From: Escherichia coli
Lineage (GTDB): Bacteria > Pseudomonadota > Gammaproteobacteria > Enterobacterales > Enterobacteriaceae
Length of the DNA stretch: 64,000 nt
Strand: one strand, 5' to 3'
Assembly (NCBI RefSeq): GCF_046105845.1
Contig: NZ_CP151004.1
Shown: positions 7,101 through 38,866 of the stretch, piece by piece
Position numbering within the stretch: the first letter of the stretch is position 1
Layout of the letters: every line of letters starts with the position of its first letter
The notes under the pieces: generated by a model
What the model saw: only the letters and a program-made list of their open reading frames with translations
Told to the model about the DNA's origin: nothing
Databases searched by the model: none
Made by a program: the position numbers and the translations under genes

Positions 7101-7474
7101 TCATTTGAAATAAACTAATTTCACCTCCGTTTTCGCATTATATTTTCTAATGTCATGATTTTTTGATTTAGTGTTTTTTGACAATTTTTTAGTTCTTAAT
7201 ATTGCATTAATCAAATTAACTTTCTCATCTGTTTATCTTTATATAGAGATTTGTTCATTTTTTGGTTTTTTATTCTGTTGTGATTTTGGCGTTTTTTAAC
7301 CATAAGCTAATGTGATGATCAATTTTACCTTATGGTTAACAGTCTGTTTCGGTGGTAAGTTCAGGCAAAAGAGAACGATTGCGTTGGGGACCGGGAGTGG
7401 CTCCGATGCTGGGTTTCGTGGTGATAATTTCGCCATGGAAAAGTTGTCAGCCCCGCTTATTCAATGAGGACAAG

Positions 7475-8569
7475 ATGGCACAACAGACTCCTTTGTACGA
7501 ACAACATACGCTTTGCGGCGCTCGCATGGTGGATTTCCACGGCTGGATGATGCCGCTGCATTACGGTTCGCAAATCGACGAACATCATGCGGTACGTACC
7601 GATGCCGGAATGTTTGATGTGTCACATATGACCATCGTCGATCTTCGCGGCAGCCGCACTCGGGAGTTTCTGCGTTATCTGCTGGCGAACGATGTGGCGA
7701 AACTCACCAAAAGCGGCAAAGCCCTTTACTCGGGGATGTTGAATGCCTCTGGCGGTGTGATAGATGACCTCATCGTCTACTACTTTACTGAAGATTTCTT
7801 CCGCCTCGTTGTTAACTCCGCCACCCGCGAAAAAGACCTCTCCTGGATTACCCAACACGCTGAACCTTTCGGCATCGAAATTACCGTTCGTGATGACCTT
7901 TCCATGATCGCCGTACAAGGGCCGAATGCGCAGGCAAAAGCTGCCACACTGTTTAATGACGCCCAGCGTCAGGCGGTGGAAGGGATGAAACCGTTCTTTG
8001 GCGTGCAGGCGGGCGATCTGTTTATTGCCACCACTGGTTATACCGGTGAAGCGGGCTATGAAATTGCGCTGCCCAATGAAAAAGCGGCCGATTTCTGGCG
8101 TGCGCTGGTGGAAGCGGGCGTTAAGCCATGCGGCCTGGGCGCGCGTGACACGCTGCGTCTGGAAGCGGGTATGAATCTTTATAGTCAGGAGATGGACGAA
8201 ACCATCTCTCCTTTAGCCGCCAATATGGGCTGGACTATCGCCTGGGAACCGGCAGATCGTGACTTCATCGGTCGTGAAGCCCTGGAAGTGCAGCGTGAGC
8301 ATGGCACAGAAAAACTGGTTGGTCTGGTGATGACCGAAAAAGGCGTGCTGCGTAATGAACTGCCGGTACGTTTTACCGATGCGCAGGGCAACCAGCATGA
8401 AGGCATTATCACCAGCGGGACTTTCTCCCCGACGCTGGGTTACAGCATTGCGCTGGCGCGCGTGCCGGAAGGTATTGGTGAAACAGCGATTGTGCAAATT
8501 CGCAACCGTGAAATGCCGGTTAAAGTGACGAAACCTGTTTTTGTGCGTAACGGTAAAGCCGTCGCGTGA
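7475..8569 (+). CDS. gcvT: Glycine cleavage system T protein (aminomethyltransferase)
   Basis: Internal ATG at 7475 gives [41 protein letters not shown]..., 364 aa; the track ORF at 7352 is 5'-extended. Confidence 0.94.
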
Positions 8570-8592: not shown

Positions 8593-8982
8593 ATGAGCAA
8601 CGTACCAGCAGAACTCAAATACAGCAAAGAACACGAATGGCTGCGTAAAGAAGCCGACGGCACTTACACCGTTGGTATCACCGAACATGCCCAGGAGCTG
8701 TTAGGCGATATGGTGTTTGTTGACCTGCCGGAAGTGGGCGCAACGGTTAGCGCGGGCGATGACTGCGCGGTTGCCGAATCAGTAAAAGCGGCGTCAGACA
8801 TTTATGCGCCAGTAAGCGGTGAAATCGTGGCGGTAAACGACGCACTGAGCGATTCCCCGGAACTGGTGAACAGCGAACCGTATGCAGGCGGCTGGATCTT
8901 TAAAATCAAAGCCAGCGATGAAAGCGAACTGGAATCACTGCTGGATGCGACCGCATACGAAGCATTGTTAGAAGACGAGTAA
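8593..8982 (+). CDS. gcvH: Glycine cleavage system H protein (lipoyl carrier)
   Basis: [49 protein letters not shown]..., 129 aa. Confidence 0.94.
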
Positions 8983-8992
8983 CGGCTTTATT

Positions 8993-9064
8993 CCTCTTCT
9001 GCGGGAGAGGATCAGGGTGAGGAACTTTTACGCCTCACCCTCACTCTCTTCGCAAGGAGAGAGG
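8993..9064. repeat. Imperfect palindromic intergenic element (arms cctcttctgcgggagaggatcagggtgagg / cctcaccctcactctcttcgcaaggagagagg)
   Basis: Seen directly: two inverted arms sharing gggagagg and agggtgagg cores, between gcvH and the true gcvP start; shares motifs with the element at 12054-12155. Confidence 0.6.
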
Positions 9065-9100
9065 TTCACAATTCACTGCACGTTTCAGGAACCATCGCTC

Positions 9101-11974
9101 ATGACACAGACGTTAAGCCAGCTTGAAAACAGCGGCGCTTTTATTGAACGCCATATCGGACCGGACGCCGCGCAACAGCAAGAAATGCTGAATGCCGTTG
9201 GCGCACAATCGTTAAACGCGCTGACCGGCCAGATTGTGCCGAAAGATATTCAGCTTGCGACCCCGCCGCAGGTTGGCGCACCGGCGACCGAATACGCCGC
9301 GCTGGCGGAACTCAAGGCTATTGCCAGTCGCAATAAACGCTTCACGTCTTACATCGGCATGGGTTACACCGCCGTGCAGCTACCGCCGGTTATTCTGCGT
9401 AACATGCTGGAAAATCCGGGCTGGTATACCGCGTATACTCCGTATCAACCTGAAGTCTCCCAGGGCCGCCTTGAAGCACTGCTCAACTTCCAGCAGGTAA
9501 CGTTGGATTTAACCGGGCTGGATATGGCCTCTGCTTCTCTTCTGGACGAAGCCACCGCTGCCGCCGAAGCAATGGCGATGGCTAAACGCGTCAGCAAACT
9601 GAAAAATGCCAACCGCTTCTTCGTGGCTTCCGATGTGCATCCGCAAACGCTGGATGTGGTCCGTACTCGTGCCGAAACCTTTGGTTTTGAAGTGATTGTC
9701 GATGACGCGCAAAAAGTGCTCGACCATCAGGACGTCTTCGGCGTGCTGTTTCAGCAGGTCGGCACTACCGGTGAAATTCATGACTACACTGCGCTTATCA
9801 GCGAACTGAAATCACGCAAAATTGTGGTCAGCGTCGCCGCCGATATTATGGCGCTGGTGCTGTTAACTGCGCCGGGTAAACAGGGCGCGGATATTGTCTT
9901 TGGTTCGGCGCAACGCTTTGGCGTACCGATGGGCTACGGTGGCCCACATGCGGCATTCTTTGCGGCGAAAGATGAATACAAACGCTCAATGCCGGGCCGT
10001 ATTATCGGTGTATCGAAAGATGCAGCTGGCAATACCGCTCTGCGCATGGCGATGCAGACTCGCGAGCAACATATTCGCCGTGAGAAAGCGAACTCCAACA
10101 TTTGTACTTCCCAGGTACTGCTGGCAAACATCGCCAGCCTGTATGCCGTTTATCACGGCCCGGTTGGCCTGAAACGTATCGCTAACCGCATCCACCGTCT
10201 GACCGATATCCTGGCGGCGGGCCTGCAACAAAAAGGTCTGAAGCTGCGTCATGCGCACTATTTCGACACCTTGTGTGTGGAAGTGGCCGACAAAGCGGGC
10301 GTACTGACGCGTGCCGAAGCGGCTGAAATCAACCTGCGTAGCGATATCCTGAACGCGGTTGGGATCACCCTTGATGAAACCACCACGCGTGAAAACGTGA
10401 TGCAGCTTTTCAGCGTGCTGCTGGGCGATAACCACGGGCTGGAGATCGACACGCTGGATAAAGACGTGGCTCACGACAGCCGCTCTATTCAGCCTGCGAT
10501 GCTGCGCGACGACGAAATCCTCACCCATCCGGTGTTTAATCGCTACCACAGCGAAACCGAAATGATGCGCTATATGCACTCGCTGGAGCGTAAAGATCTG
10601 GCGCTGAATCAGGCGATGATCCCGCTGGGTTCCTGCACCATGAAACTGAACGCCGCCGCCGAGATGATCCCAATCACCTGGCCGGAATTTGCTGAACTGC
10701 ACCCGTTCTGCCCGCCAGAACAGGCCGAAGGTTATCAGCAGATGATTGCGCAGCTGGCTGACTGGCTGGTGAAACTGACCGGTTACGACGCCGTTTGTAT
10801 GCAGCCGAACTCTGGCGCACAGGGCGAATACGCGGGCCTGCTGGCGATTCGTCATTATCATGAAAGCCGCAACGAAGGGCATCGTGATATCTGCCTGATC
10901 CCGGCATCTGCCCACGGCACTAACCCCGCTTCCGCGCATATGGCGGGGATGCAGGTGGTGGTTGTGGCGTGTGATAAAAACGGCAATATCGATTTGACTG
11001 ATCTGCGCGCGAAAGCGGAACAGGCGGGCGATAACCTCTCCTGTATCATGGTGACCTATCCTTCCACCCACGGCGTGTATGAAGAAACGATCCGTGAGGT
11101 GTGTGAAGTCGTGCATCAGTTCGGTGGTCAGGTTTACCTTGATGGCGCGAACATGAACGCTCAGGTTGGCATCACCTCGCCGGGCTTTATTGGTGCGGAC
11201 GTCTCGCACCTTAACCTGCATAAAACTTTCTGCATTCCGCACGGTGGTGGTGGTCCGGGTATGGGACCGATCGGCGTGAAAGCGCATCTGGCACCGTTTG
11301 TACCGGGTCATAGCGTGGTGCAAATCGAAGGCATGTTAACCCGTCAGGGCGCGGTTTCTGCGGCACCGTTCGGTAGCGCATCTATTCTGCCAATCAGCTG
11401 GATGTACATCCGCATGATGGGCGCAGAAGGGCTGAAAAAAGCAAGCCAGGTGGCAATTCTTAACGCCAACTATATTGCCAGCCGCCTGCAGGATGCTTTC
11501 CCGGTGCTGTATACCGGTCGCGACGGTCGCGTGGCGCACGAATGTATTCTTGATATTCGTCCGCTGAAAGAAGAAACCGGCATCAGCGAACTGGATATTG
11601 CCAAGCGTCTGATCGACTACGGTTTCCACGCGCCGACCATGTCATTCCCGGTGGCGGGTACGCTGATGGTTGAACCGACCGAATCCGAAAGCAAAGTGGA
11701 ACTGGATCGCTTTATCGACGCGATGCTGGCTATCCGCGCAGAAATTGACCAGGTGAAAGCCGGTGTCTGGCCGCTGGAAGATAACCCGCTGGTGAACGCG
11801 CCACACATTCAGAGCGAACTGGTCGCCGAGTGGGCGCATCCGTACAGCCGCGAAGTTGCAGTATTCCCGGCAGGCGTGGCAGACAAATACTGGCCAACAG
11901 TGAAACGTCTGGATGATGTTTACGGCGACCGTAACCTGTTCTGCTCCTGCGTACCGATTAGCGAATACCAGTAA
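9101..11974 (+). CDS. gcvP: Glycine dehydrogenase (decarboxylating), glycine cleavage P protein
   Basis: Internal ATG at 9101 gives [35 protein letters not shown]..., 957 aa; the track ORF start at 9017 runs through the upstream palindrome. Confidence 0.94.
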
Positions 11975-11996
11975 TTTACTGATTCGACTATCTTCT

Positions 11997-12020
11997 AAAG
12001 GCGCTTCGGCGCCTTTTTAG
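11997..12020 (+). terminator. Rho-independent terminator of gcvTHP operon
   Basis: aaaggcgcttcggcgcctttttag: perfect GC-rich hairpin followed by T5. Confidence 0.8.
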
Positions 12021-12053
12021 TCAGATGACAAAGTACAAAAGTGCTCAGACAGT

Positions 12054-12155
12054 CCCCTCGCCCCTTTGGGGAGAGGGTTAGGGTGAGGGGAACAGGCCGG
12101 CACTGGCGCGAATATTTACCCTCACCCCGGCCCTCTCCCTGAAAGGGCGAGGGGG
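12054..12155. repeat. About 100-bp GC-rich imperfect palindrome (dispersed intergenic repeat-like)
   Basis: Arms cccctcgcccctttggggagagggttagggtgagggg and ccctcaccccggccctctccctgaaagggcgaggggg are near reverse complements of each other. Confidence 0.6.
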
Positions 12156-12240
12156 AAAAGCGTGCCAACATTGAAGATTGAGCCAGTTTGTTAGCAATCT
12201 AAAAGATACGTCAACGAATTAATTTTTCCAGGAAAAACAA

Positions 12241-12984
12241 TTGGCTATAGCACTTGTGACCGGTGGCAGTCGCGGCATCGGGCGGGCAACTGCATTACTG
12301 TTGGCGCAAGAAGGGTATACGGTGGCGGTTAATTATCAGCAAAACCTCCACGCGGCGCAGGAAGTGGTGAACTTAATCACGCAAGCCGGTGGCAAGGCAT
12401 TCGTGCTCCAGGCGGATATCAGCGACGAAAATCAGGTCGTCGAGATGTTTACCGCAATCGATCTGCACGATGAACCGCTAGCTGCACTGGTCAATAACGC
12501 CGGGATCTTGTTTACCCAGTGCACCGTAGAAAACCTTACCGCAGAGCGAATCAACCGGGTACTTTCCACCAATGTGACGGGACATTTTCTCTGTTGCCGC
12601 GAGGCGGTAAAACGCATGGCGCTGAAAAATGGCGGTAATGGCGGTGCTATCGTCAACGTCTCTTCAGTGGCCTCACGGCTGGGATCTCCGGGGGAATACG
12701 TTGATTATGCGGCATCGAAAGGGGCGATTGATACGTTAACCACAGGGCTGTCGCTGGAAGTCGCTGCGCAAGGAATTCGCGTTAATGGCGTGCGGCCCGG
12801 TTTTATCTATACCGGAATGCACGCCAGCGGTGGCGAACCTGGACGCGTTGATCGCGTTAAGTCGAACATCCCCATGCAGCGCGGTGGGCAGGCGGAAGAG
12901 GTCGCGCAGGCCATCGTCTGGCTGTTAAGTGATAAAGCCTCTTATGTCACGGGAAGTTTTATCGATTTGGCGGGCGGAAAATAA
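12241..12984 (+). CDS. ygfF: Short-chain dehydrogenase/reductase (SDR) family oxidoreductase
   Basis: TTG start; (M)AIALVTGGSRGIGRATALLL... with the TGxxxGxG Rossmann motif; 247 aa. Confidence 0.85.
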   Translation: MAIALVTGGSRGIGRATALLLAQEGYTVAVNYQQNLHAAQEVVNLITQAGGKAFVLQADISDENQVVEMFTAIDLHDEPLAALVNNAGILFTQCTVENLTAERINRVLSTNVTGHFLCCREAVKRMALKNGGNGGAIVNVSSVASRLGSPGEYVDYAASKGAIDTLTTGLSLEVAAQGIRVNGVRPGFIYTGMHASGGEPGRVDRVKSNIPMQRGGQAEEVAQAIVWLLSDKASYVTGSFIDLAGGK

Positions 12985-13002
12985 GATGGGAAAGTTATCT
13001 GA

Positions 13003-13033
13003 CCGGATGCAACACAATTGGCGTTGCATCCGG
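13003..13033. terminator. Palindromic hairpin between convergent ygfF and bglA (probable bidirectional terminator / REP-like)
   Basis: ccggatgcaacacaattggcgttgcatccgg, perfect 11-bp arms. Confidence 0.5.
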
Positions 13034-33840: not shown

Positions 33841-36711
33841 TTATATTTTTTCCAGCGCAGTGAGTATTTTCTCCGGTGTGAAATGCCATTCGCGTAACCA
33901 GATGCCGCAGGCATCGTGAATTGCGGTAGCAATCGCCGGAGCTGCGCCATTTACACCGATTTCCGAGATCGATTTCGCCCCGAACGGGCCGACTTTATCG
34001 TCGCTCGGCACCAGCACAGCGCGGAAATCACGCGGAATATCGCCTATTTTCGGTGCGCCGTAACTGCGTAAATCACGCGTTAACGGGTGACCTTCGGCGT
34101 CATAAATGATTTCTTCGCTCATACTGTGGCCGATTGCACGAAGGGTGGCACCGTAGATTTGTCCCAACGCTAACTCTGGATTGACCGGTGTACCGCAATC
34201 CAGCAAGGCGTAGAATTTATCCAGGCGGATTTCACCCGTACGCGTGTTGACGGCAACTTCAGCAAAGTTTGCGCCATACGGGAAGGCGAAATCAGGCGTG
34301 ATATAACTGCCAGTTCCCACCAGTGAACCAAAGCCTGTGCCGGTTTCGCCTTTATGGGCAATATCCCCGAAACTAACTTCGCCTTTCTTGCCGCGTACGA
34401 CGCCCGGCGTTGCTAGTTGGACATCTGCCACTGGCTCACCCAACATTTGCGCACCGTGGAACAGAATTTTCTCCCGCAGATTTTCTGCTGCCAAACGCGC
34501 CGCGTTACCCGAGAAGCAAGTACCGGACGAGGCATATGCGCCTTTATCAAACAACGCATGATCGGTATCACCGGAGATAACATGCACGTCCTGCGGTGGG
34601 CAGTGCAGCACTTCTGCTGCCAGTTTCGTCACCACGGTATCCAGACCAGTACCAATATCCGCACCGCCAGAATGAACGATAAAGGTACCGTCTGATTCCA
34701 GTTTGATCATGCAGTTAGCCTGATCGATATCCGGGATCCCTGATTTCTGCATGATAATGGCGACGCCACGACCGATGTGCCAGTCACCGTTTTGTGGTTT
34801 TGGTGAAGACCATTGGATCATCTCGCGACCCTGACGCAGGATCTCTTCCAGTGCGCAGCTGGCGGCGGAAGGAACGGAGGTCGGCGCTTTACCTTCACCG
34901 ATTGCACCGAGAATTTTCAGCTCTTGCCCTTCGTGTACCCGGTTACGTTCGATAATTTCCAGTTGGTCGATCTGTAACTGTTCAGCCAGTTCCGCTAATG
35001 CCATGGTGATAGCGAAGTTACCTTTCGGTGCGCCATAACCCTGATAAGCACCATTTGGGCAAATGTTGCTGTAGTAGGTGGTGACCTGGAAATCGACGTT
35101 ATCGCACGGATATAACGGCAGCGACAGCGCCGGTCCGTTACACGGTACGGTGAGTGAGTGGTTGCCGTAAGGGCCAGTGTTGGCGCGGAAATCCATCTTC
35201 ACTGCCGTCAGGCGACCATCTTTTTTCGCTCCCAGTTTGACGGTGACTTTCGCGACGTGACGAGAGGTGTTAGCAATAAACTCTTCTTCACGGGTGTAGC
35301 GGAACAGTACCGGACGCCCGGTCACGCAGGTTGCCCAGGCGCACACTTCTTCCAGCAGGATGTCCTGTTTGGAACCAAAACCGCCGCCAACTCGCTCTTT
35401 AATGACATGAACTTTATGCTGTTTCATGCCCACGAGGCGCGCGACCTGGCGGCGTAAGTGCCATGGTACCTGGGTGGAGGCGTGGATAACCAGACGATCG
35501 CCGTCCATACGGGTAAAGCAGATATGAGTTTCAGTCGGGCACTGCTGCGCCTGCGTTGAGTTATAGGTTCGCTCAATGATCACATCGGCATCGGCAAAGC
35601 CTTTGTCCATATCGCCGATATGACCATGAATACTGGCGGCGATATTTTTACGGGGGCGAGAACCGATCGGGAAGTTGATGATCATATGCTCGCCGCGCTG
35701 GGCTGCATGGCTGTTATCGTCTTCCAGAGTATCTGGCGCACCAGCAACATACACCACCGGTTCATCGTGCACGACAGGCGCATCTTCCGCCATTGCTTCG
35801 TCGATCGACATTACAGGTTTAAGCACTTCATATTCAACGTCGATGAGCTTCAGTGCTTCGAGCGCAATTTCTTCACTTTCTGCGACGACCGCAGCAACAC
35901 GATCGCCGACGTGACGCATTTTCTTGCCGAACATACGGCGGTCAAGCGGTGACGGTTCCGGTGCGCTCTGACCGCCCGGGGTATAGTAGATATCCGGGCA
36001 ATTCAGGTGAGTAATAACGTGAACAACGCCCGGTAAGGCTTCAGCTTTGCTGACATCCAGATGAGTAATCAGTGCGTGAGCGTGTGGGCTACGTAACATT
36101 TTAATGACGCAGGCGTCAGCCGTTACGCGGTCTTCAACATAGCAGGGTTTCGCCTGCACCATTTTCGCGGCATCAGTTTTAGGATAATGCTTACCAATGA
36201 CTTCAAGGTCATCGCGGAAAGTCGGAGCGATATCAATGGTGGCCTGCGGATTATTTTTACGTGCAACCGCCAGTTCAATGACCTGATAGTATTGTTGCCA
36301 GCCTGCATCGCGGCTGAACAAACCAGAAAGCGCGTCGTCGATCTCTTCGCGGGTCGGTGCGGCAATGCGATCGAGAAGATCGGTGATAATCAGAGCCGCA
36401 GCTGGATCGTTATAACCAGACTGCACCACGCCAACATCAACCATTGCCTGTTGAACCAGACTTAACTCGTTCCATTTGCCCAGAGACTCTGCGGTACGAA
36501 TATCTGCCTTCTCTAACTGTGCGGCGATAAGCAAGGACGCGTTAACGATATTACCGTTACAGATAATTGCGTCAGAACCGGCAAACCCGAATCCATCATC
36601 GCTGTTGCGTACAGAGTGCATTCCCATGTTAAACAACAGCTTTTGCACGTTTTCGCCTGGATTAACGGTTAGCTCCTGAGGCGCGCCATTTAAAGTAAAG
36701 TGGATGATCAT
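33841..36711 (-). CDS. xdhD: Molybdopterin-dependent hydroxylase, fused 2Fe-2S and Mo-binding domains (xanthine dehydrogenase family)
   Basis: 956-aa ORF MIIHFTLNGAPQELTVNPGENVQKLLFNMG...; N-terminal 2Fe-2S ferredoxin-like domain then aldehyde-oxidase/xanthine-dehydrogenase Mo domain. Confidence 0.9.
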   Translation of the reverse strand: MIIHFTLNGAPQELTVNPGENVQKLLFNMGMHSVRNSDDGFGFAGSDAIICNGNIVNASLLIAAQLEKADIRTAESLGKWNELSLVQQAMVDVGVVQSGYNDPAAALIITDLLDRIAAPTREEIDDALSGLFSRDAGWQQYYQVIELAVARKNNPQATIDIAPTFRDDLEVIGKHYPKTDAAKMVQAKPCYVEDRVTADACVIKMLRSPHAHALITHLDVSKAEALPGVVHVITHLNCPDIYYTPGGQSAPEPSPLDRRMFGKKMRHVGDRVAAVVAESEEIALEALKLIDVEYEVLKPVMSIDEAMAEDAPVVHDEPVVYVAGAPDTLEDDNSHAAQRGEHMIINFPIGSRPRKNIAASIHGHIGDMDKGFADADVIIERTYNSTQAQQCPTETHICFTRMDGDRLVIHASTQVPWHLRRQVARLVGMKQHKVHVIKERVGGGFGSKQDILLEEVCAWATCVTGRPVLFRYTREEEFIANTSRHVAKVTVKLGAKKDGRLTAVKMDFRANTGPYGNHSLTVPCNGPALSLPLYPCDNVDFQVTTYYSNICPNGAYQGYGAPKGNFAITMALAELAEQLQIDQLEIIERNRVHEGQELKILGAIGEGKAPTSVPSAASCALEEILRQGREMIQWSSPKPQNGDWHIGRGVAIIMQKSGIPDIDQANCMIKLESDGTFIVHSGGADIGTGLDTVVTKLAAEVLHCPPQDVHVISGDTDHALFDKGAYASSGTCFSGNAARLAAENLREKILFHGAQMLGEPVADVQLATPGVVRGKKGEVSFGDIAHKGETGTGFGSLVGTGSYITPDFAFPYGANFAEVAVNTRTGEIRLDKFYALLDCGTPVNPELALGQIYGATLRAIGHSMSEEIIYDAEGHPLTRDLRSYGAPKIGDIPRDFRAVLVPSDDKVGPFGAKSISEIGVNGAAPAIATAIHDACGIWLREWHFTPEKILTALEKI

Positions 36712-37487
36712 ACGGCTTCCTCCCCAGCCTGTTGGCAGTCGGCATACAGGTCGGCTACCAGAACTCCCGTGATATAGCGTTTATAGGCCACGCTGCCCCG
36801 CAAATCTTCCTGCGGGAAAATGGCGTTGGCGACAGCCTGTTCAAGTGCATTGCCTTCCAGATTTTGTTTTTCAACATCGTGCAGACGCAGTGCTTTACTG
36901 GCGACGCCATCCAGCGCAATTCGCATACCGTCGTGGTCTGTCATTGCAACGGCTGCCGTCACGACGGTTAAACCTGCCTGAGAACGGCTAATTTTGCGGG
37001 TCGCACAGGTGCGATACGGATCTTTAATGATAATTTCGGTTAGCAGGCGATCGCATGGGCAGGCCAGGTAGTCCTCGATTGACAGCGTTTCGCCGTTGCC
37101 AAAAACCAGTTCAGCATCCAGTGCCAGCAGGACGGGAAGCAGCACCGACTCTTCCTGCCGGGCGGCGATTTCACCACCAATGGTCGACTGATTACGAACA
37201 TGGCGAGAGTAGACAAAGCCGAGGGCTTCACGCAGTGCTGCAGGAATAAATCGCGCATCACGCAGTGGCTGCAAGCGAGACATTGCACCAATCCGCAGTG
37301 CACCGTTATCCCAGTCAACCCAGTCCAGTTCCAGATCCTGTAAGGAAATGGCAATCTTTTTATCGGTACGGGTTGGTGTAGCGTTGAGTTTGCTGCCCCC
37401 GGCGAACCAGACGGCTTCATCCTGGTAGCGGCGCTTCAGTTCCAGCGCCTGTTCGACAGAGTCGGGCCTGAAAAATTGTTCAATCAT
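36708..37487 (-). CDS. ygfM: FAD-binding subunit of molybdopterin hydroxylase (CoxM/XdhB-like)
   Basis: 259-aa ORF MIEQFFRPDSVEQALELKRRYQDEAVWFAGGSKL...; stop overlaps the xdhD start. Confidence 0.88.
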   Translation of the reverse strand: MIEQFFRPDSVEQALELKRRYQDEAVWFAGGSKLNATPTRTDKKIAISLQDLELDWVDWDNGALRIGAMSRLQPLRDARFIPAALREALGFVYSRHVRNQSTIGGEIAARQEESVLLPVLLALDAELVFGNGETLSIEDYLACPCDRLLTEIIIKDPYRTCATRKISRSQAGLTVVTAAVAMTDHDGMRIALDGVASKALRLHDVEKQNLEGNALEQAVANAIFPQEDLRGSVAYKRYITGVLVADLYADCQQAGEEAV

Positions 37488-37537
37488 CTTCTTTCCTTAT
37501 TTAACCCTCTTCCCTACGGGAAGAGGGTATTTGTCAT

Positions 37538-38866
37538 TTATGCCAGCGCATCCATCCGACGCCACATACTGGCAGCGGCTTTTCTGGCTTGCGCATAAAT
37601 GGAATCGCAATCGAAGTTAAACTGACGGTCTTCATAGACCATCACACCATTGACCATCACGCTGTGAACGCTGCCTGAGCCCATACCGAAAGCGATATGC
37701 CCGGCGATATTGTCTGCCAGCAGCGGCGTCGGCGAGTTGTAATCGCAAATGGTTAAATCGGCTTTGTAACCGGCTTCCAGAAGGCCAAATTTCGCGCCAA
37801 AATTGCGGCTCATCAGTTCGTTGCCGTTAGCCAGTGCTTTGGCAAAACTGTCAGGCCACAGCGGACCACCCGCATCGCGATGTTTAAAGAAGGCAAATTT
37901 CATCTCTTCAAACATGTCCGAACCAATGCCGTCCGTTCCCAACGCCAGATTGCGGATGTCGCTAAGGTGATGGTTGTAGCCGACATGGTTGTTCATGTTT
38001 GAACGGGCGTTATGCACCAGGAACGCATCGCGCTGATTGAGTAGGGCGATGTCATCTTTCGACAAGTACAGCCCATGAGCGACCAGCGTTTTGCTGTCGA
38101 TGAGATCGAATTGCGCCAGTCGTGCCAGCAGGTCTTTGCCGTACCAGTGGTGACTGTAGGAAACGTCATAAAGGTCTTCCGCAGCGTGAATATGCAAACC
38201 ACGACCTGTGGCTTTCACGGCTTCACGCAGCATCTCCAGACCGGCATCCGGCACGGTAAACGGCGCGTGAGCGCCGATATGTGCTTCCACCAGATACGGC
38301 TCGGTTGTTGCTTTCTTCGCCTTATCAATCTGACGGGCGAAGCGGATGTTTTCTTCTACACCTTCCTGCAACTCTTTGATGCCGTTGTTACGGTCAGTAG
38401 TTTCAAAACAGGTCATCGCGCGCAGGCCAACTTTTAAAAATGCGTTGCGCAATGTGGAGAGCGACCTGCCGATATACGCCGGAGAGGCATGGTGATCGAT
38501 AACCGATGTACATCCGCTCTTAATTGCTTCCAGGGAACAAATCAGTCCGCTGTAATAGAGCGACTCTTCATCAAGGGCGCGATCGAGTCGCCACCAGAGA
38601 TTTTTCAGCGTTGAGATGAAATCCGGGCAGGGGGCGATGTTTGCCATAATTCCGCGGGAAAGTCCCGAGTAAAAATGGTTGTGCGAGCAGACAATTCCCG
38701 GCATCACAATCCGACCATGCATCTCTTTGTAGCTGGCATCGGGGTAGCGTTGCGTCAGGGCATCGCCGATAGCGACAATCACATCATTTTCGATGGCGAT
38801 ATCAACGCCTTCCTGCACTTTCGCCGGGTGTAACTGCACTGCGGTGACATTCTTCAGAATCAACAT
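37538..38866 (-). CDS. ssnA: Aminohydrolase (amidohydrolase superfamily, chlorohydrolase-like)
   Basis: 442-aa ORF MLILKNVTAVQLHPAKVQEGVDIAIENDVIVAIGDAL...; HNH metal-binding motif (CSHNHFYS). Confidence 0.9.
   Translation of the reverse strand: MLILKNVTAVQLHPAKVQEGVDIAIENDVIVAIGDALTQRYPDASYKEMHGRIVMPGIVCSHNHFYSGLSRGIMANIAPCPDFISTLKNLWWRLDRALDEESLYYSGLICSLEAIKSGCTSVIDHHASPAYIGRSLSTLRNAFLKVGLRAMTCFETTDRNNGIKELQEGVEENIRFARQIDKAKKATTEPYLVEAHIGAHAPFTVPDAGLEMLREAVKATGRGLHIHAAEDLYDVSYSHHWYGKDLLARLAQFDLIDSKTLVAHGLYLSKDDIALLNQRDAFLVHNARSNMNNHVGYNHHLSDIRNLALGTDGIGSDMFEEMKFAFFKHRDAGGPLWPDSFAKALANGNELMSRNFGAKFGLLEAGYKADLTICDYNSPTPLLADNIAGHIAFGMGSGSVHSVMVNGVMVYEDRQFNFDCDSIYAQARKAAASMWRRMDALA

Follow-up and report, generated by a model that had tools for sequence, protein, structure and literature searches.

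BoxC-family palindromes on both sides of gcvP in Escherichia coli: an intact pair downstream and a degenerate pair at a strong RNA 3' end inside the gcvTHP operon

E. coli and its enterobacterial relatives carry BoxC, a dispersed intergenic repeat rich in GC that was recognised in the 1990s. The earlier BoxC/PIT literature reportedly comprises work by Bachellier and colleagues in the 1990s and by Hoyne and colleagues in 2000, with 32-33 BoxC copies reportedly counted by Bachellier et al or Blattner et al, and BoxC is not known to be linked to a RAYT transposase. REP elements, another dispersed palindrome, are said to have been described by Newbury and colleagues in 1987 as stabilisers of mRNA 3' ends. 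BoxC, PIT (potential intrastrand triplex) and TMECO elements are one and the same (Holder et al, 2015, PMC4666352). Their unit motif is CCCTCNCCC-N3-6-GGGNGAGGG-N3-GGGNGAGGG, and MG1655 carries 23 strict copies at 18 intergenic loci, where, in paired copies, a type A unit (TTA loop) faces an inverted type B unit (CCG loop) (PMC4666352). Oligonucleotides of type A mm and type B mm form an intrastrand purine-motif triplex in vitro as judged by CD and NMR; DMS footprinting in vivo lent no support to a stable triplex, and DNA that was double-stranded remained a duplex (PMC4666352). In the summary that Holder et al (2015) give of Hoyne & Maher, PIT elements display neither promoter nor terminator activity in reporters.

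Two further systems are close to the locus described here. Stem-loops lacking a U-tract define trimmed, exonuclease-protected RNA 3' ends (Dar & Sorek, 2018, PMC6061677), and for BIMEs a link to attenuation of transcription has been cited (Espeli et al, 2001). The glycine cleavage operon of Dickeya dadantii has an internal intrinsic terminator after gcvH, termination there being estimated at 71 ± 22% (Forquet et al, 2022, PMC9239193).

The window analysed here is a stretch of 64,000 nucleotides of E. coli, in which the initial annotation had noted imperfect palindromes in the gcvH-gcvP and gcvP-ygfF spacers. An inverted-repeat scan recovers both, upstream at 8994-9022/9033-9061 (arms of 29 nt, 72% complementary, 10 nt apart) and downstream at 12054-12092/12116-12154 (arms of 39 nt, 82% complementary, 23 nt apart), and both consist of the cores that they were said to share, GGGAGAGG and GGGTGAGG, with their complements. 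The composite motif GGGAGAGGGNNNGGGTGAGGG, allowing up to 3 mismatches, occurs three times in the window (9003 and 12069 on the plus strand, 12119 on the minus strand) against 0.04 copies expected from shuffles; none of 100 shuffles holds three. Folded as RNA, the upstream region reaches -40.5 kcal/mol (z = -5.0 versus shuffles) and the downstream region -77.8 kcal/mol (z = -6.8). With DNA parameters the single-arm hairpins are unremarkable (z = -0.5 to -2.1) and the full pair alone stands out (z = -5.2), the folding programs used being models of hairpins only. The gene layout needs one minor change: gcvP starts with the ATG at 9101.

Both palindromes flanking gcvP are members of the BoxC family, but they differ in state: the downstream copy is intact, the upstream one degenerate. 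The features at the downstream copy are as follows.

11997-12019, plus strand: gcvP intrinsic terminator, hairpin AAAGGCGC/GCGCCTTT with a T-run
12021-12204: BoxC-pair cassette of ~184 bp, comprising left flank, arm A, conserved centre, arm B and right flank
12055-12153: downstream element, an intact type-A/type-B inverted BoxC pair
12055-12090, plus strand: arm A, CCCTCGCCCCTTTGGGGAGAGGGTTAGGGTGAGGGG, TMECO type A mm, #11 of MG1655, with a TTA loop
12118-12153, minus strand: arm B, CCCTCGCCCTTTCAGGGAGAGGGCCGGGGTGAGGGT, TMECO type B mm, #10 of MG1655, with a CCG loop

The strict TMECO expression matches both arms (12055-12089 on the plus strand, 12119-12153 on the minus strand), and a BoxC profile, for which 10 independent half-elements of E. 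coli were used, detects arm A with E = 3.5e-14 and arm B with E = 1.6e-14. Letter for letter, the arms are TMECO #11 (3,046,087-3,046,052, type A mm) and #10 (3,045,989-3,046,024, type B mm) of the published list (Holder et al, 2015, Table 1, PMC4666352), which in MG1655 lie between ygfF (ends 3,045,901) and gcvP (starts 3,046,168). The proposal of a dispersed intergenic repeat family, with Box C among the named candidates, is thereby borne out; the identity of that family is already known, and the downstream pair already stands in a published table. The same inverted A+B pairing recurs at hrpB-mrcB, fepB-entC, alx-sstT, and lldD-trmL. That the motif might occur at these two sites only is contradicted by a genome-wide search (blastn), since a 121-nt query spanning the downstream element has matches in 5,408 of the 5,426 complete E. 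coli genomes searched. These amount to 83,766 places, of which 57 are on plasmids, and the median genome holds 17.

The annotation had also called for comparison with other repeat families, and of those compared only Box C matches. REP/BIME membership is rejected, as only words of 7-8 nt are in common (E at least 0.35, blastn-short) with a BIME from BL21 and with the REP consensus, GCCGGATG…CTTATCCGGCCTAC, an imperfect palindrome of ~35 nt. ERIC/IRU (~127 bp) shares the word GGGGTGAG only, with a best E of 0.05 against a reference from C. youngae (core …GTGACTGGGGTGAGCG… / …AAGCTCCTGGGGATTCAC…). ERIC/IRU and MITE-like repeats resemble BoxC in being intergenic, palindromic, transcribed, and present or absent between strains, but the two elements here lack the ERIC core beyond that one word. 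Rfam yields sub-threshold matches at a permissive E-value (at most 33.5 bits versus gathering scores of at least 71) to eukaryotic miRNA precursors, HCV SL588, and whalefall-1, which we dismiss because they are generic long-hairpin matches. The repeat hairpins are not intrinsic (Rho-independent) terminators either, as no T-run follows them. A consensus terminator scan of 8900-12400 flags none of them; it also leaves the hairpin at 11997-12018 unflagged, its hits being at background level.

Between the gcvP stop codon (11972-11974) and the downstream element lies a hairpin, AAAGGCGC-TTCG-GCGCCTTTTT (11997-12018), followed by a T-run, in agreement with the earlier observation that this copy sits behind a separate canonical terminator. 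A Term-seq 3' end of MG1655 (3,046,123, minus strand) falls at the corresponding window position 12019. In Citrobacter, Kluyvera, and Kosakonia, the same terminator directly precedes ygfF, and the gcvP-ygfF spacer of other genera measures only 55-80 nt. In the E. coli lineage, the cassette separates the gcvP terminator from the ribosome-binding site of ygfF and lies past the main transcript end. A copy at yijF-gldA matches window 12037-12190 at 89.6% identity, with weaker likeness to ~12021-12208, and the left flank and centre are common to four other MG1655 pairs. At yijF-gldA, the BoxC cassette and a BIME are alternative alleles between identical flanks, REP/BIME being the form in most E. 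coli, and it is from comparing these alleles that the cassette ends are deduced. Clear terminal inverted repeats or target-site duplications of the cassette were not found. A weak 18-nt inverted repeat (72% complementary) with T-rich flanks is insufficient for a MITE.

The consensus scan of 8900-12400 detects no promoter-like site and so lends no support to a ygfF promoter within the cassette. Term-seq lists no end between the bglA-side end at 3,045,144 (plus strand) and the terminator end at 3,046,123 (minus strand), and hence none inside the downstream pair. Most likely, the downstream element has no dedicated cellular function and is repeat DNA capable of forming a cruciform or triplex. Whether such structures act at the DNA level, by stalling replication and promoting rearrangement, has been raised as a hypothesis of genomic instability by Holder et al (PMC4666352), to which we give little credence for this locus. 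An oligonucleotide apparently identical to arm A forms a stable triplex in vitro (Tm ~74 °C, type A mm; PMC4666352), but the in vivo footprinting cited above argues against a stable one. The left edge of a presence/absence segment, 12021-13033, which carries ygfF, is 33 bp away from the downstream pair. This segment, with the gcvP-ygfF spacer, is not intact in ~44% of E. coli genomes, and in the three of these that were examined, cassette and ygfF are both absent. This proximity, like the alternation with a BIME at yijF-gldA, would fit a destabilising repeat, but where the ygfF segment is missing, unrelated sequence takes its place rather than a simple deletion at the repeat. Moreover, the position of the upstream copy is essentially invariant in 5,425 genomes, which shows that the DNA around a BoxC-like palindrome can remain stable.

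The upstream copy lies between two cistrons of the gcvTHP operon, and its features are the following.

8992-9063, plus strand: upstream element, a decayed inverted BoxC pair in the gcvH-gcvP spacer, within the gcvTHP mRNA
8992-9011, plus strand: hairpin 1, CCUCUUCU-GCGG-GAGAGGAU, C-block and first G-block of arm 1 (predicted minimum free energy fold)
9014-9041, plus strand: hairpin 2 (central), AGGGUGAGG, 10-nt loop, CCUCACCCU, pairing the second G-blocks of both arms (predicted minimum free energy fold)
9044-9063, plus strand: hairpin 3, CUCUCUUC-GCAA-GGAGAGAG, G-block 1 and C-block of the inverted arm 2 (predicted minimum free energy fold)
9045, plus strand: in vivo RNA 3' end, MG1655 3,049,097 on the minus strand (Term-seq)
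9064-9100, plus strand: gcvP leader and ribosome-binding region, …ATTCACTGCACGTTTCAGGAACCATCGCTC followed by ATG, the right edge of a variable slot

Strict TMECO matches are absent from 8983-9100. The BoxC profile recognises the G-blocks of arm 1 (9001-9022, E = 0.0075, 12.6 bits), while arm 2 (9064-9033, minus strand) is not significant alone (E = 0.41). Because the strict motif is unmatched and the profile weak, we file the upstream copy as a degenerate derivative rather than a strict member, and its membership derives in part from positional homology. It shares with BoxC the block order (C-block, G-block, G-block), the inverted pairing, and the cores. In contrast, it breaks the consensus in its C-block (CCTCTTC) and in the ends of its G-blocks (GGA, AGT, GGC), its loops have drifted to TCA and TGA, its centre measures 10 nt versus ~25 nt in BoxC, and the cassette flanks are missing. 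It is also intra-operonic and transcribed, and stands outside the strict 23-copy list (PMC4666352). At 95% identity or more, 5,425 of the 5,426 E. coli genomes contain it, each at a single place.

Positional homology comes from 80 enterobacterial gcv loci, in which six of the seven strict TMECO matches fall on the sense strand of the gcvH-gcvP spacer, ~10 nt past the gcvH stop, and can be aligned with the E. coli upstream copy. They occur in Enterobacter cloacae, E. asburiae, Pseudocitrobacter, RIT691, Buttiauxella, and Pluralibacter, and the first three of these carry a BoxC pair at the same position with a strict arm 1. On this alignment, the upstream copy is the positional homologue of strict BoxC members in other genera.

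In the predicted RNA fold, hairpin 1 begins 9 nt after the gcvH stop codon (8980-8982), hairpin 2 has a 9-bp stem, and hairpin 3 carries a GCAA loop in the window versus GTAA in MG1655 on an identical stem. Seven E. coli alleles differ from one another in loops only, all 50 stem positions being invariant. Covariation across 10 BoxC-type gcvH-gcvP spacers is weak: 15 consensus pairs include two with double changes, and the covariation term is ~0. As the element is a repeat, its stems could be conserved through recent shared ancestry instead of selection.

The very position of hairpin 1 raises the thought that it hinders terminating ribosomes and lowers GcvH output. Liang, Rudd and Deutscher are said to have found comparable interference in 2015 for a REP within ~15 nt of a stop codon. 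We consider this very unlikely at gcvH: it appeals to geometry only (stop at 8980-8982, stem from 8992), which is shared by the intact BoxC copies of other genera starting at about the same distance, but the stem of hairpin 1 is weaker than the other two and contains a G-U pair, and H protein would be expected to be needed in excess.

At the upstream copy, a dominant steady-state RNA 3' end at 9045 is reported in a Term-seq data set that covers three growth conditions (Adams et al, 2021, PMC7815308, supplementary file 1). There, the MG1655 position 3,049,097 is entered three times, two of its scores, in the class "orphan", being 412,219 and 171,112, and the gcvP terminator end scores 36,065, so the former end has ~11 times the score of the latter. 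It lies 4 nt past the last paired base of hairpin 2, and at three further BoxC copies of MG1655 (847,200 minus, 3,781,065 plus, and 3,959,467 minus), 3' ends likewise lie exactly 4 nt past a hairpin. The initial description of the palindromes as something other than simple terminators holds in one respect, as no U-tract follows the repeat hairpins in either element, but the upstream copy is nevertheless the site of a very strong RNA 3' end in vivo.

Term-seq records ends made by termination and by processing alike, and two origins of the 9045 end have to be weighed. RNA polymerase might stop at ~9045, the element being a factor-independent or Rho-assisted attenuator. We regard this as rather unlikely, although the end follows a GC-rich 9-bp hairpin and is itself followed by the pyrimidine-rich CACUCUCUUCG, BIMEs are cited in connection with attenuation (Espeli et al, 2001), and true termination occurs at the equivalent position in Dickeya (PMC9239193). 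Against it stand the missing U-tract, the inactivity of PIT elements as terminators in reporters as relayed in PMC4666352, the lack of any listed Rho termination region within ~600 nt downstream of the 9045 end, and the offset itself, since an identical 4 nt at four BoxC loci fits the footprint of an exonuclease. On our analysis, exonuclease trimming rather than termination would therefore explain the end at 9045.

We thus favour as the probable reading that both elements are BoxC, the downstream one a functionless repeat cassette and the upstream decayed pair a set of exonuclease-barrier hairpins in the gcvTHP mRNA. The upstream element is transcribed within this mRNA and predicted to fold there into three local hairpins; transcripts ending or cut further 3' would then be trimmed in the 3'-to-5' direction by PNPase or RNase II back to the central hairpin, leaving a stable gcvT-gcvH message. 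As this message would remain after trimming, gcvP would be expressed below gcvT and gcvH, and the GcvH:GcvP ratio may be affected accordingly. Such a model corresponds to the established mechanism of REP/BIME and of further stem-loops that lack a U-tract, and the element would act as stabiliser or attenuator. The upstream element resembles REP/BIME in being a dispersed palindrome between cistrons with an RNA 3' end just 3' of a U-less stem and with lower expression of the distal gene expected, and REPs occupy the same gcvH-gcvP and yijF-gldA slots. It differs in lacking any sequence similarity to them, and the role proposed for BoxC is deduced from 3'-end mapping. As to a gcvTH transcript in E. 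coli, the text and the supplements consulted of Yan et al (2018) contain no mention of gcv, and a literature search on gcvTHP terminators returned nothing beyond the Dickeya paper (PMC9239193).

Comparison across genera places the upstream copy in a wider pattern. In Enterobacteriaceae, the gcvP leader and ribosome-binding site of the spacer are nearly invariant, while the part 5' of the leader is exchanged for different repeats, and nearly all of the 80 species examined have a structured element in this slot. REPs fill it in Citrobacter, Lelliottia, and Kosakonia, and ERIC in C. koseri, Kluyvera, Serratia marcescens, and Providencia, while Dickeya spacers hold a canonical hairpin with a T-run. 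In Erwinia and Rosenbergiella, the spacer shrinks to just 8-23 nt, so a hairpin at this site is not essential. The D. dadantii terminator (PMC9239193) agrees with the E. coli element in operon position and in a predicted gcvTH transcript with read-through into gcvP; it differs in that the E. coli element is repeat-derived and free of a U-tract.

This pattern can be read in two ways beyond the trimming model. A selfish or passively duplicated repeat may have left both gcvP-flanking copies as neutral relics, the 3' end at the upstream copy being an unselected by-product of any stable hairpin in an mRNA, with no effect on gcv expression, a possibility that we hold with some doubt. The slot would then simply be filled by whichever repeat family is active in a lineage, be it BoxC, REP, ERIC, or none as in Erwinia, and the visible decay of the upstream copy, the weak covariation, and ~30 years without a function found for BoxC (PMC4666352) agree with this. 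It is harder to reconcile with an upstream copy that 5,425 of 5,426 genomes retain and that is polymorphic in its loops only, with a 9045 end that ranks among the stronger 3' ends of the region, and with repeat-less lineages that retain a terminator hairpin at the same place, including the measured effect in Dickeya (PMC9239193).

The opposite reading, which we put forward tentatively, is that the stretch after gcvH is a selected "hairpin socket", in which Enterobacterales retain a stable stem-loop: an intrinsic terminator in Dickeya, Serratia, and Photorhabdus, and interchangeable REP, ERIC, or BoxC elements in Enterobacteriaceae. E. coli might then have domesticated a decayed BoxC pair as an operon-internal 3'-end former that sets the GcvT/H:GcvP ratio, and, as ends lie exactly 4 nt past the stem at four loci, transcribed BoxC hairpins might generally be determinants of RNA 3' ends.

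As a repeat-family assignment alone, our result is housekeeping. Its interest lies in the strong Term-seq 3' ends exactly 4 nt past BoxC hairpins, which make an RNA-level role testable for a family so far studied almost entirely as a DNA-triplex motif and left without an assigned function; one such end lies inside the gcvTHP operon and is labelled only "orphan" in public data. Further, the filling of one intercistronic slot by four unrelated structured elements across genera amounts to convergent filling, and together with the yijF-gldA alleles, the gcvH-gcvP slot offers a natural experiment on whether repeats are selected as RNA hairpins or land at permissive sites. If the socket and 3'-end reading is true, it would provide a cellular role for a repeat family that has lacked one since the 1990s.

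Both palindromes that flank gcvP almost certainly belong to the BoxC family, a GC-rich dispersed intergenic repeat also named PIT element or TMECO. The surrounding genes are arranged as follows, with bglA next after ygfF in convergent orientation.

7352-8569, plus strand: gcvT, glycine-cleavage operon
about 8593-8982, plus strand: gcvH, glycine-cleavage operon
9101-11974, plus strand: gcvP, glycine-cleavage operon
12241-12984, plus strand: ygfF, TTG start

The strain is not MG1655, as 4 of 301 positions differ around the gcvH-gcvP spacer. In this spacer, the upstream element (8992-9063) forms an inverted repeat at 8994-9022 / 9033-9061 (29-nt arms, 72% complementary), while the downstream element (12055-12153) in the gcvP-ygfF spacer does so at 12054-12092 / 12116-12154 (39-nt arms, 82% complementary). 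As proposed in the initial annotation, the two are related through common cores: all four arms align around invariant GGGTGAGG and GAGAG blocks. The composite motif GGGAGAGGGNNNGGGTGAGGG (≤3 mismatches) has three occurrences in 64 kb, all within these two palindromes (0.04 expected). As RNA, the two regions are far more stably folded than shuffled controls (z = -5.0 for the upstream and -6.8 for the downstream region), and DNA folding of the whole downstream pair yields z = -5.2. A separate terminator does precede the downstream copy, with a distinct hairpin and T-run at 11997-12018, 3′ of the gcvP stop.

BoxC is a previously described family, and its downstream copy has been catalogued individually. 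Holder et al. (2015, PMC4666352) define TMECO as CCCTCNCCC-N3-6-GGGNGAGGG-N3-GGGNGAGGG and equate it with the motif earlier named BoxC (1990s) and PIT element (2000); BoxC is also among the known E. coli stem-loop families recovered by Petrillo et al. (2008). Their Table 1 (Holder et al, 2015) lists TMECO #10 (CCCTCGCCCTTTCAGGGAGAGGGCCGGGGTGAGGGT, MG1655 3,045,989-3,046,024, plus strand) and #11 (CCCTCGCCCCTTTGGGGAGAGGGTTAGGGTGAGGGG, 3,046,087-3,046,052, minus strand), both located between ygfF and gcvP in NC_000913.3. Arm A of the downstream pair (12055-12090, plus) is identical to #11 and arm B (12118-12153, minus) to #10. A BoxC profile trained on ten half-units, all from other loci, matches the downstream arms with E = 1.6e-14 and 3.5e-14. 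REP/BIME and ERIC membership of the palindromes was rejected by sequence comparison, and an Rfam scan returned no relevant match. Searching 5,426 complete E. coli genomes with 12045-12165 (blastn) located 83,766 places, almost all chromosomal; the median genome has 17, so that the family is dispersed and not limited to two sites. The initial observation is confirmed, and its interpretation as repeat-family members rather than simple terminators is supported. Elsewhere in the window, a bare perfect hairpin at 37502-37529 (CCCTCTTCCC-TACG-GGAAGAGGG; profile E = 0.018), between two minus-strand ORFs (37538-38866 and 36708-37487), resembles the BoxC C-block/G-block stem.

The upstream element evidently represents a decayed (degenerate) BoxC pair. 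It does not match the strict TMECO motif, and the profile recognizes it weakly (arm 1, E = 0.0075; arm 2, E = 0.41). Its link to BoxC is made because BoxC units stand in orthologous gcvH-gcvP spacers. Among 80 gcv loci (750 kb) from a collection with one genome per species, six of seven strict TMECO matches fall in this spacer, on the sense strand, ~10 nt past the gcvH stop. Moreover, in Enterobacter cloacae, E. asburiae, and Pseudocitrobacter this spacer holds a BoxC pair with a first arm that matches the strict motif; the pair and its E. coli counterpart align column for column. Within E. coli, the element is present in 5,425 of 5,426 genomes as a single, full-length copy (≥95% identity). 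Seven alleles place five substituted columns and a 6-nt duplication entirely in loops, with 0 of 50 stem positions changed; the chance of all five substitutions falling in loops is ~(22/72)^5 = 0.003, a naive figure from a small sample. The duplication (CCTCAC; TW10590, comparison locus L090:140-150, gcvH-gcvP spacer) sits where the loop of the central hairpin meets its stem, and no other sampled allele has a length change >1 nt. In a GTDB species representative labelled E. coli SCPM-O-B-8794 (L007:4890-5004), from a divergent lineage of Escherichia, the layout of three hairpins persists, the first and third having shorter stems; this genome lacks ygfF 3′ of gcvP and has ~1.4 kb of other sequence before bglA.

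Across Enterobacterales, the spacer contains a variable slot that begins at the gcvH stop and ends ~35 nt short of the gcvP ATG. Its occupant differs by lineage; the remaining ~35 nt up to the ATG are conserved.

Occupants of the gcvH-gcvP slot (spacers of loci L006-L085, e.g. L013:4890-5013, L009:4890-5068 in C. youngae, and L060:4908-5078).
BoxC pair or single unit: 10 taxa
Bare CCCTCTCCC/GGGAGAGGG hairpin: 4 taxa
REP/BIME: at least 13 taxa (Citrobacter, Lelliottia, Trabulsiella, Kosakonia and others)
ERIC: at least 6 taxa (C. koseri, Kluyvera, Serratia marcescens, Providencia and others)
Hairpin and T-run (intrinsic-terminator-like): Photorhabdus, Serratia, Dickeya, Yersinia, Pectobacterium
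Slot of only 8-23 nt: Erwinia, Rosenbergiella

Occupants turn over even between Enterobacter species (BoxC in E. cloacae, REP in E. quasihormaechei). These lineage-specific occupants and the within-genus turnover may reflect either a permissive site beside a hairpin, where repeats can land, or selection for some stable stem-loop after gcvH.

As mRNA, the upstream element is predicted to form three local hairpins (8992-9011, 9014-9041, and 9044-9063). Term-seq places an RNA 3′ end of class “orphan” at MG1655 3,049,097 (minus), entered three times in a file spanning three growth conditions; two retrieved scores are 412,219 and 171,112, whereas the end at the gcvP terminator scores 36,065 (Adams et al, 2021, PMC7815308, supplementary file 1). 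With the table format checked (50 nt, then end, then 10 nt), this position corresponds to window 9045, 4 nt beyond the 3′-most paired base of the central hairpin. The same +4 offset recurs in the Adams et al list at three further BoxC copies, MG1655 847,200 (minus), 3,781,065 (plus), and 3,959,467 (minus), counted there from the C-block/G-block hairpin. The 847,200 copy, with a degenerate G-block, is absent from the strict 23-copy TMECO list, which thus undercounts the family. The upstream element lacks a U-tract, and the ~600 nt past window 9045 contain no listed Rho termination region. Steady-state ends just past U-less stem-loops have been shown to result from PNPase or RNase II trimming that stops at a protective structure, of which REPs are one class (Dar & Sorek, 2018, PMC6061677). 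By analogy, the decayed BoxC pair might act like a REP stabiliser or attenuator, which would stabilise a gcvTH message and lower the expression of gcvP, a mechanism to which we give an even chance.

The downstream pair has no 3′ end inside it in the same Term-seq list, which places the gcvP terminator end at window 12019. Sequence comparison indicates that this pair belongs to a larger cassette that entered the E. coli lineage by insertion. In Citrobacter, Enterobacter, Kluyvera, Kosakonia, and Pluralibacter, the ygfF start lies 55-80 nt past gcvP, in several of them with the same AAAGGCGCTTCGGCGCC terminator directly ahead; hence, E. coli has gained ~200 bp after the terminator T-run and ahead of the ygfF ribosome-binding site. 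The insertion parted ygfF from the terminator-proximal Shine-Dalgarno context (GGGAGA) found in other genera, and the ygfF start codon is TTG in E. coli and ATG in all other genera examined. A left flank of ~35 nt (…GATGACAA…AAAAGTGCTC…CAGTC) and a centre of ~25 nt are common to four other MG1655 pairs, and a copy between yijF and gldA in some strains matches window 12037-12190 at 89.6% identity. The yijF-gldA cassette occurs in 640 genomes. Most of the sampled remaining genomes have a shorter allele, which is a BIME of two inverted REPs in both genomes fetched (BL21 and 2014C-3338). Cassette and BIME are alternative alleles between identical flanks, …GGGAGTTTCAGA on the left and TCAAACTCCCGG… on the right (L005:1486-1663 versus L095:236-365, the latter from BL21), suggesting that one repeat family has replaced another in a site-specific manner. 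These flanks themselves pair as a hairpin (GGGAGTTT…AAACTCCC). With boundaries carried over from these alleles, the window cassette would span ~12021-12204.

Holder et al (2015, PMC4666352) formed a triplex in vitro with a sequence that seems to match arm A exactly, found no triplex footprint in vivo, and argued that TMECO loci are unusually variable. Consistent with such variability, coverage of 11900-12320 reaches ≥80% in only 3,027 of 5,426 E. coli genomes. In three of the genomes below this coverage (DP033, O157:H7 7409, and T28R), segment 12021-13033, comprising the cassette, the whole of ygfF, and a REP-like hairpin at 13003-13033, is replaced by ~110 bp of unrelated sequence that, together with a different REP-like hairpin, joins the gcvP terminator directly to bglA. 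Since gcvP-ygfF-bglA synteny is ancestral, being present in other genera, this haplotype is derived. Against a general destabilising effect, the position of the upstream palindrome hardly varies throughout E. coli. The hairpin at 13003-13033 (CCGGATGCAAC…GTTGCATCCGG), between ygfF and bglA, forms the right-hand limit of the variable segment; the bglA 3′ end maps to MG1655 3,045,144 (plus), just beyond the corresponding hairpin (Adams et al, 2021, PMC7815308).

Slightly beyond the accessible literature, the gcvH-gcvP palindrome is recognized here as a degenerate BoxC pair, this and other BoxC hairpins coincide with strong RNA 3′ ends, and BoxC alternates in a cassette-like manner with REP and ERIC at identical sites.
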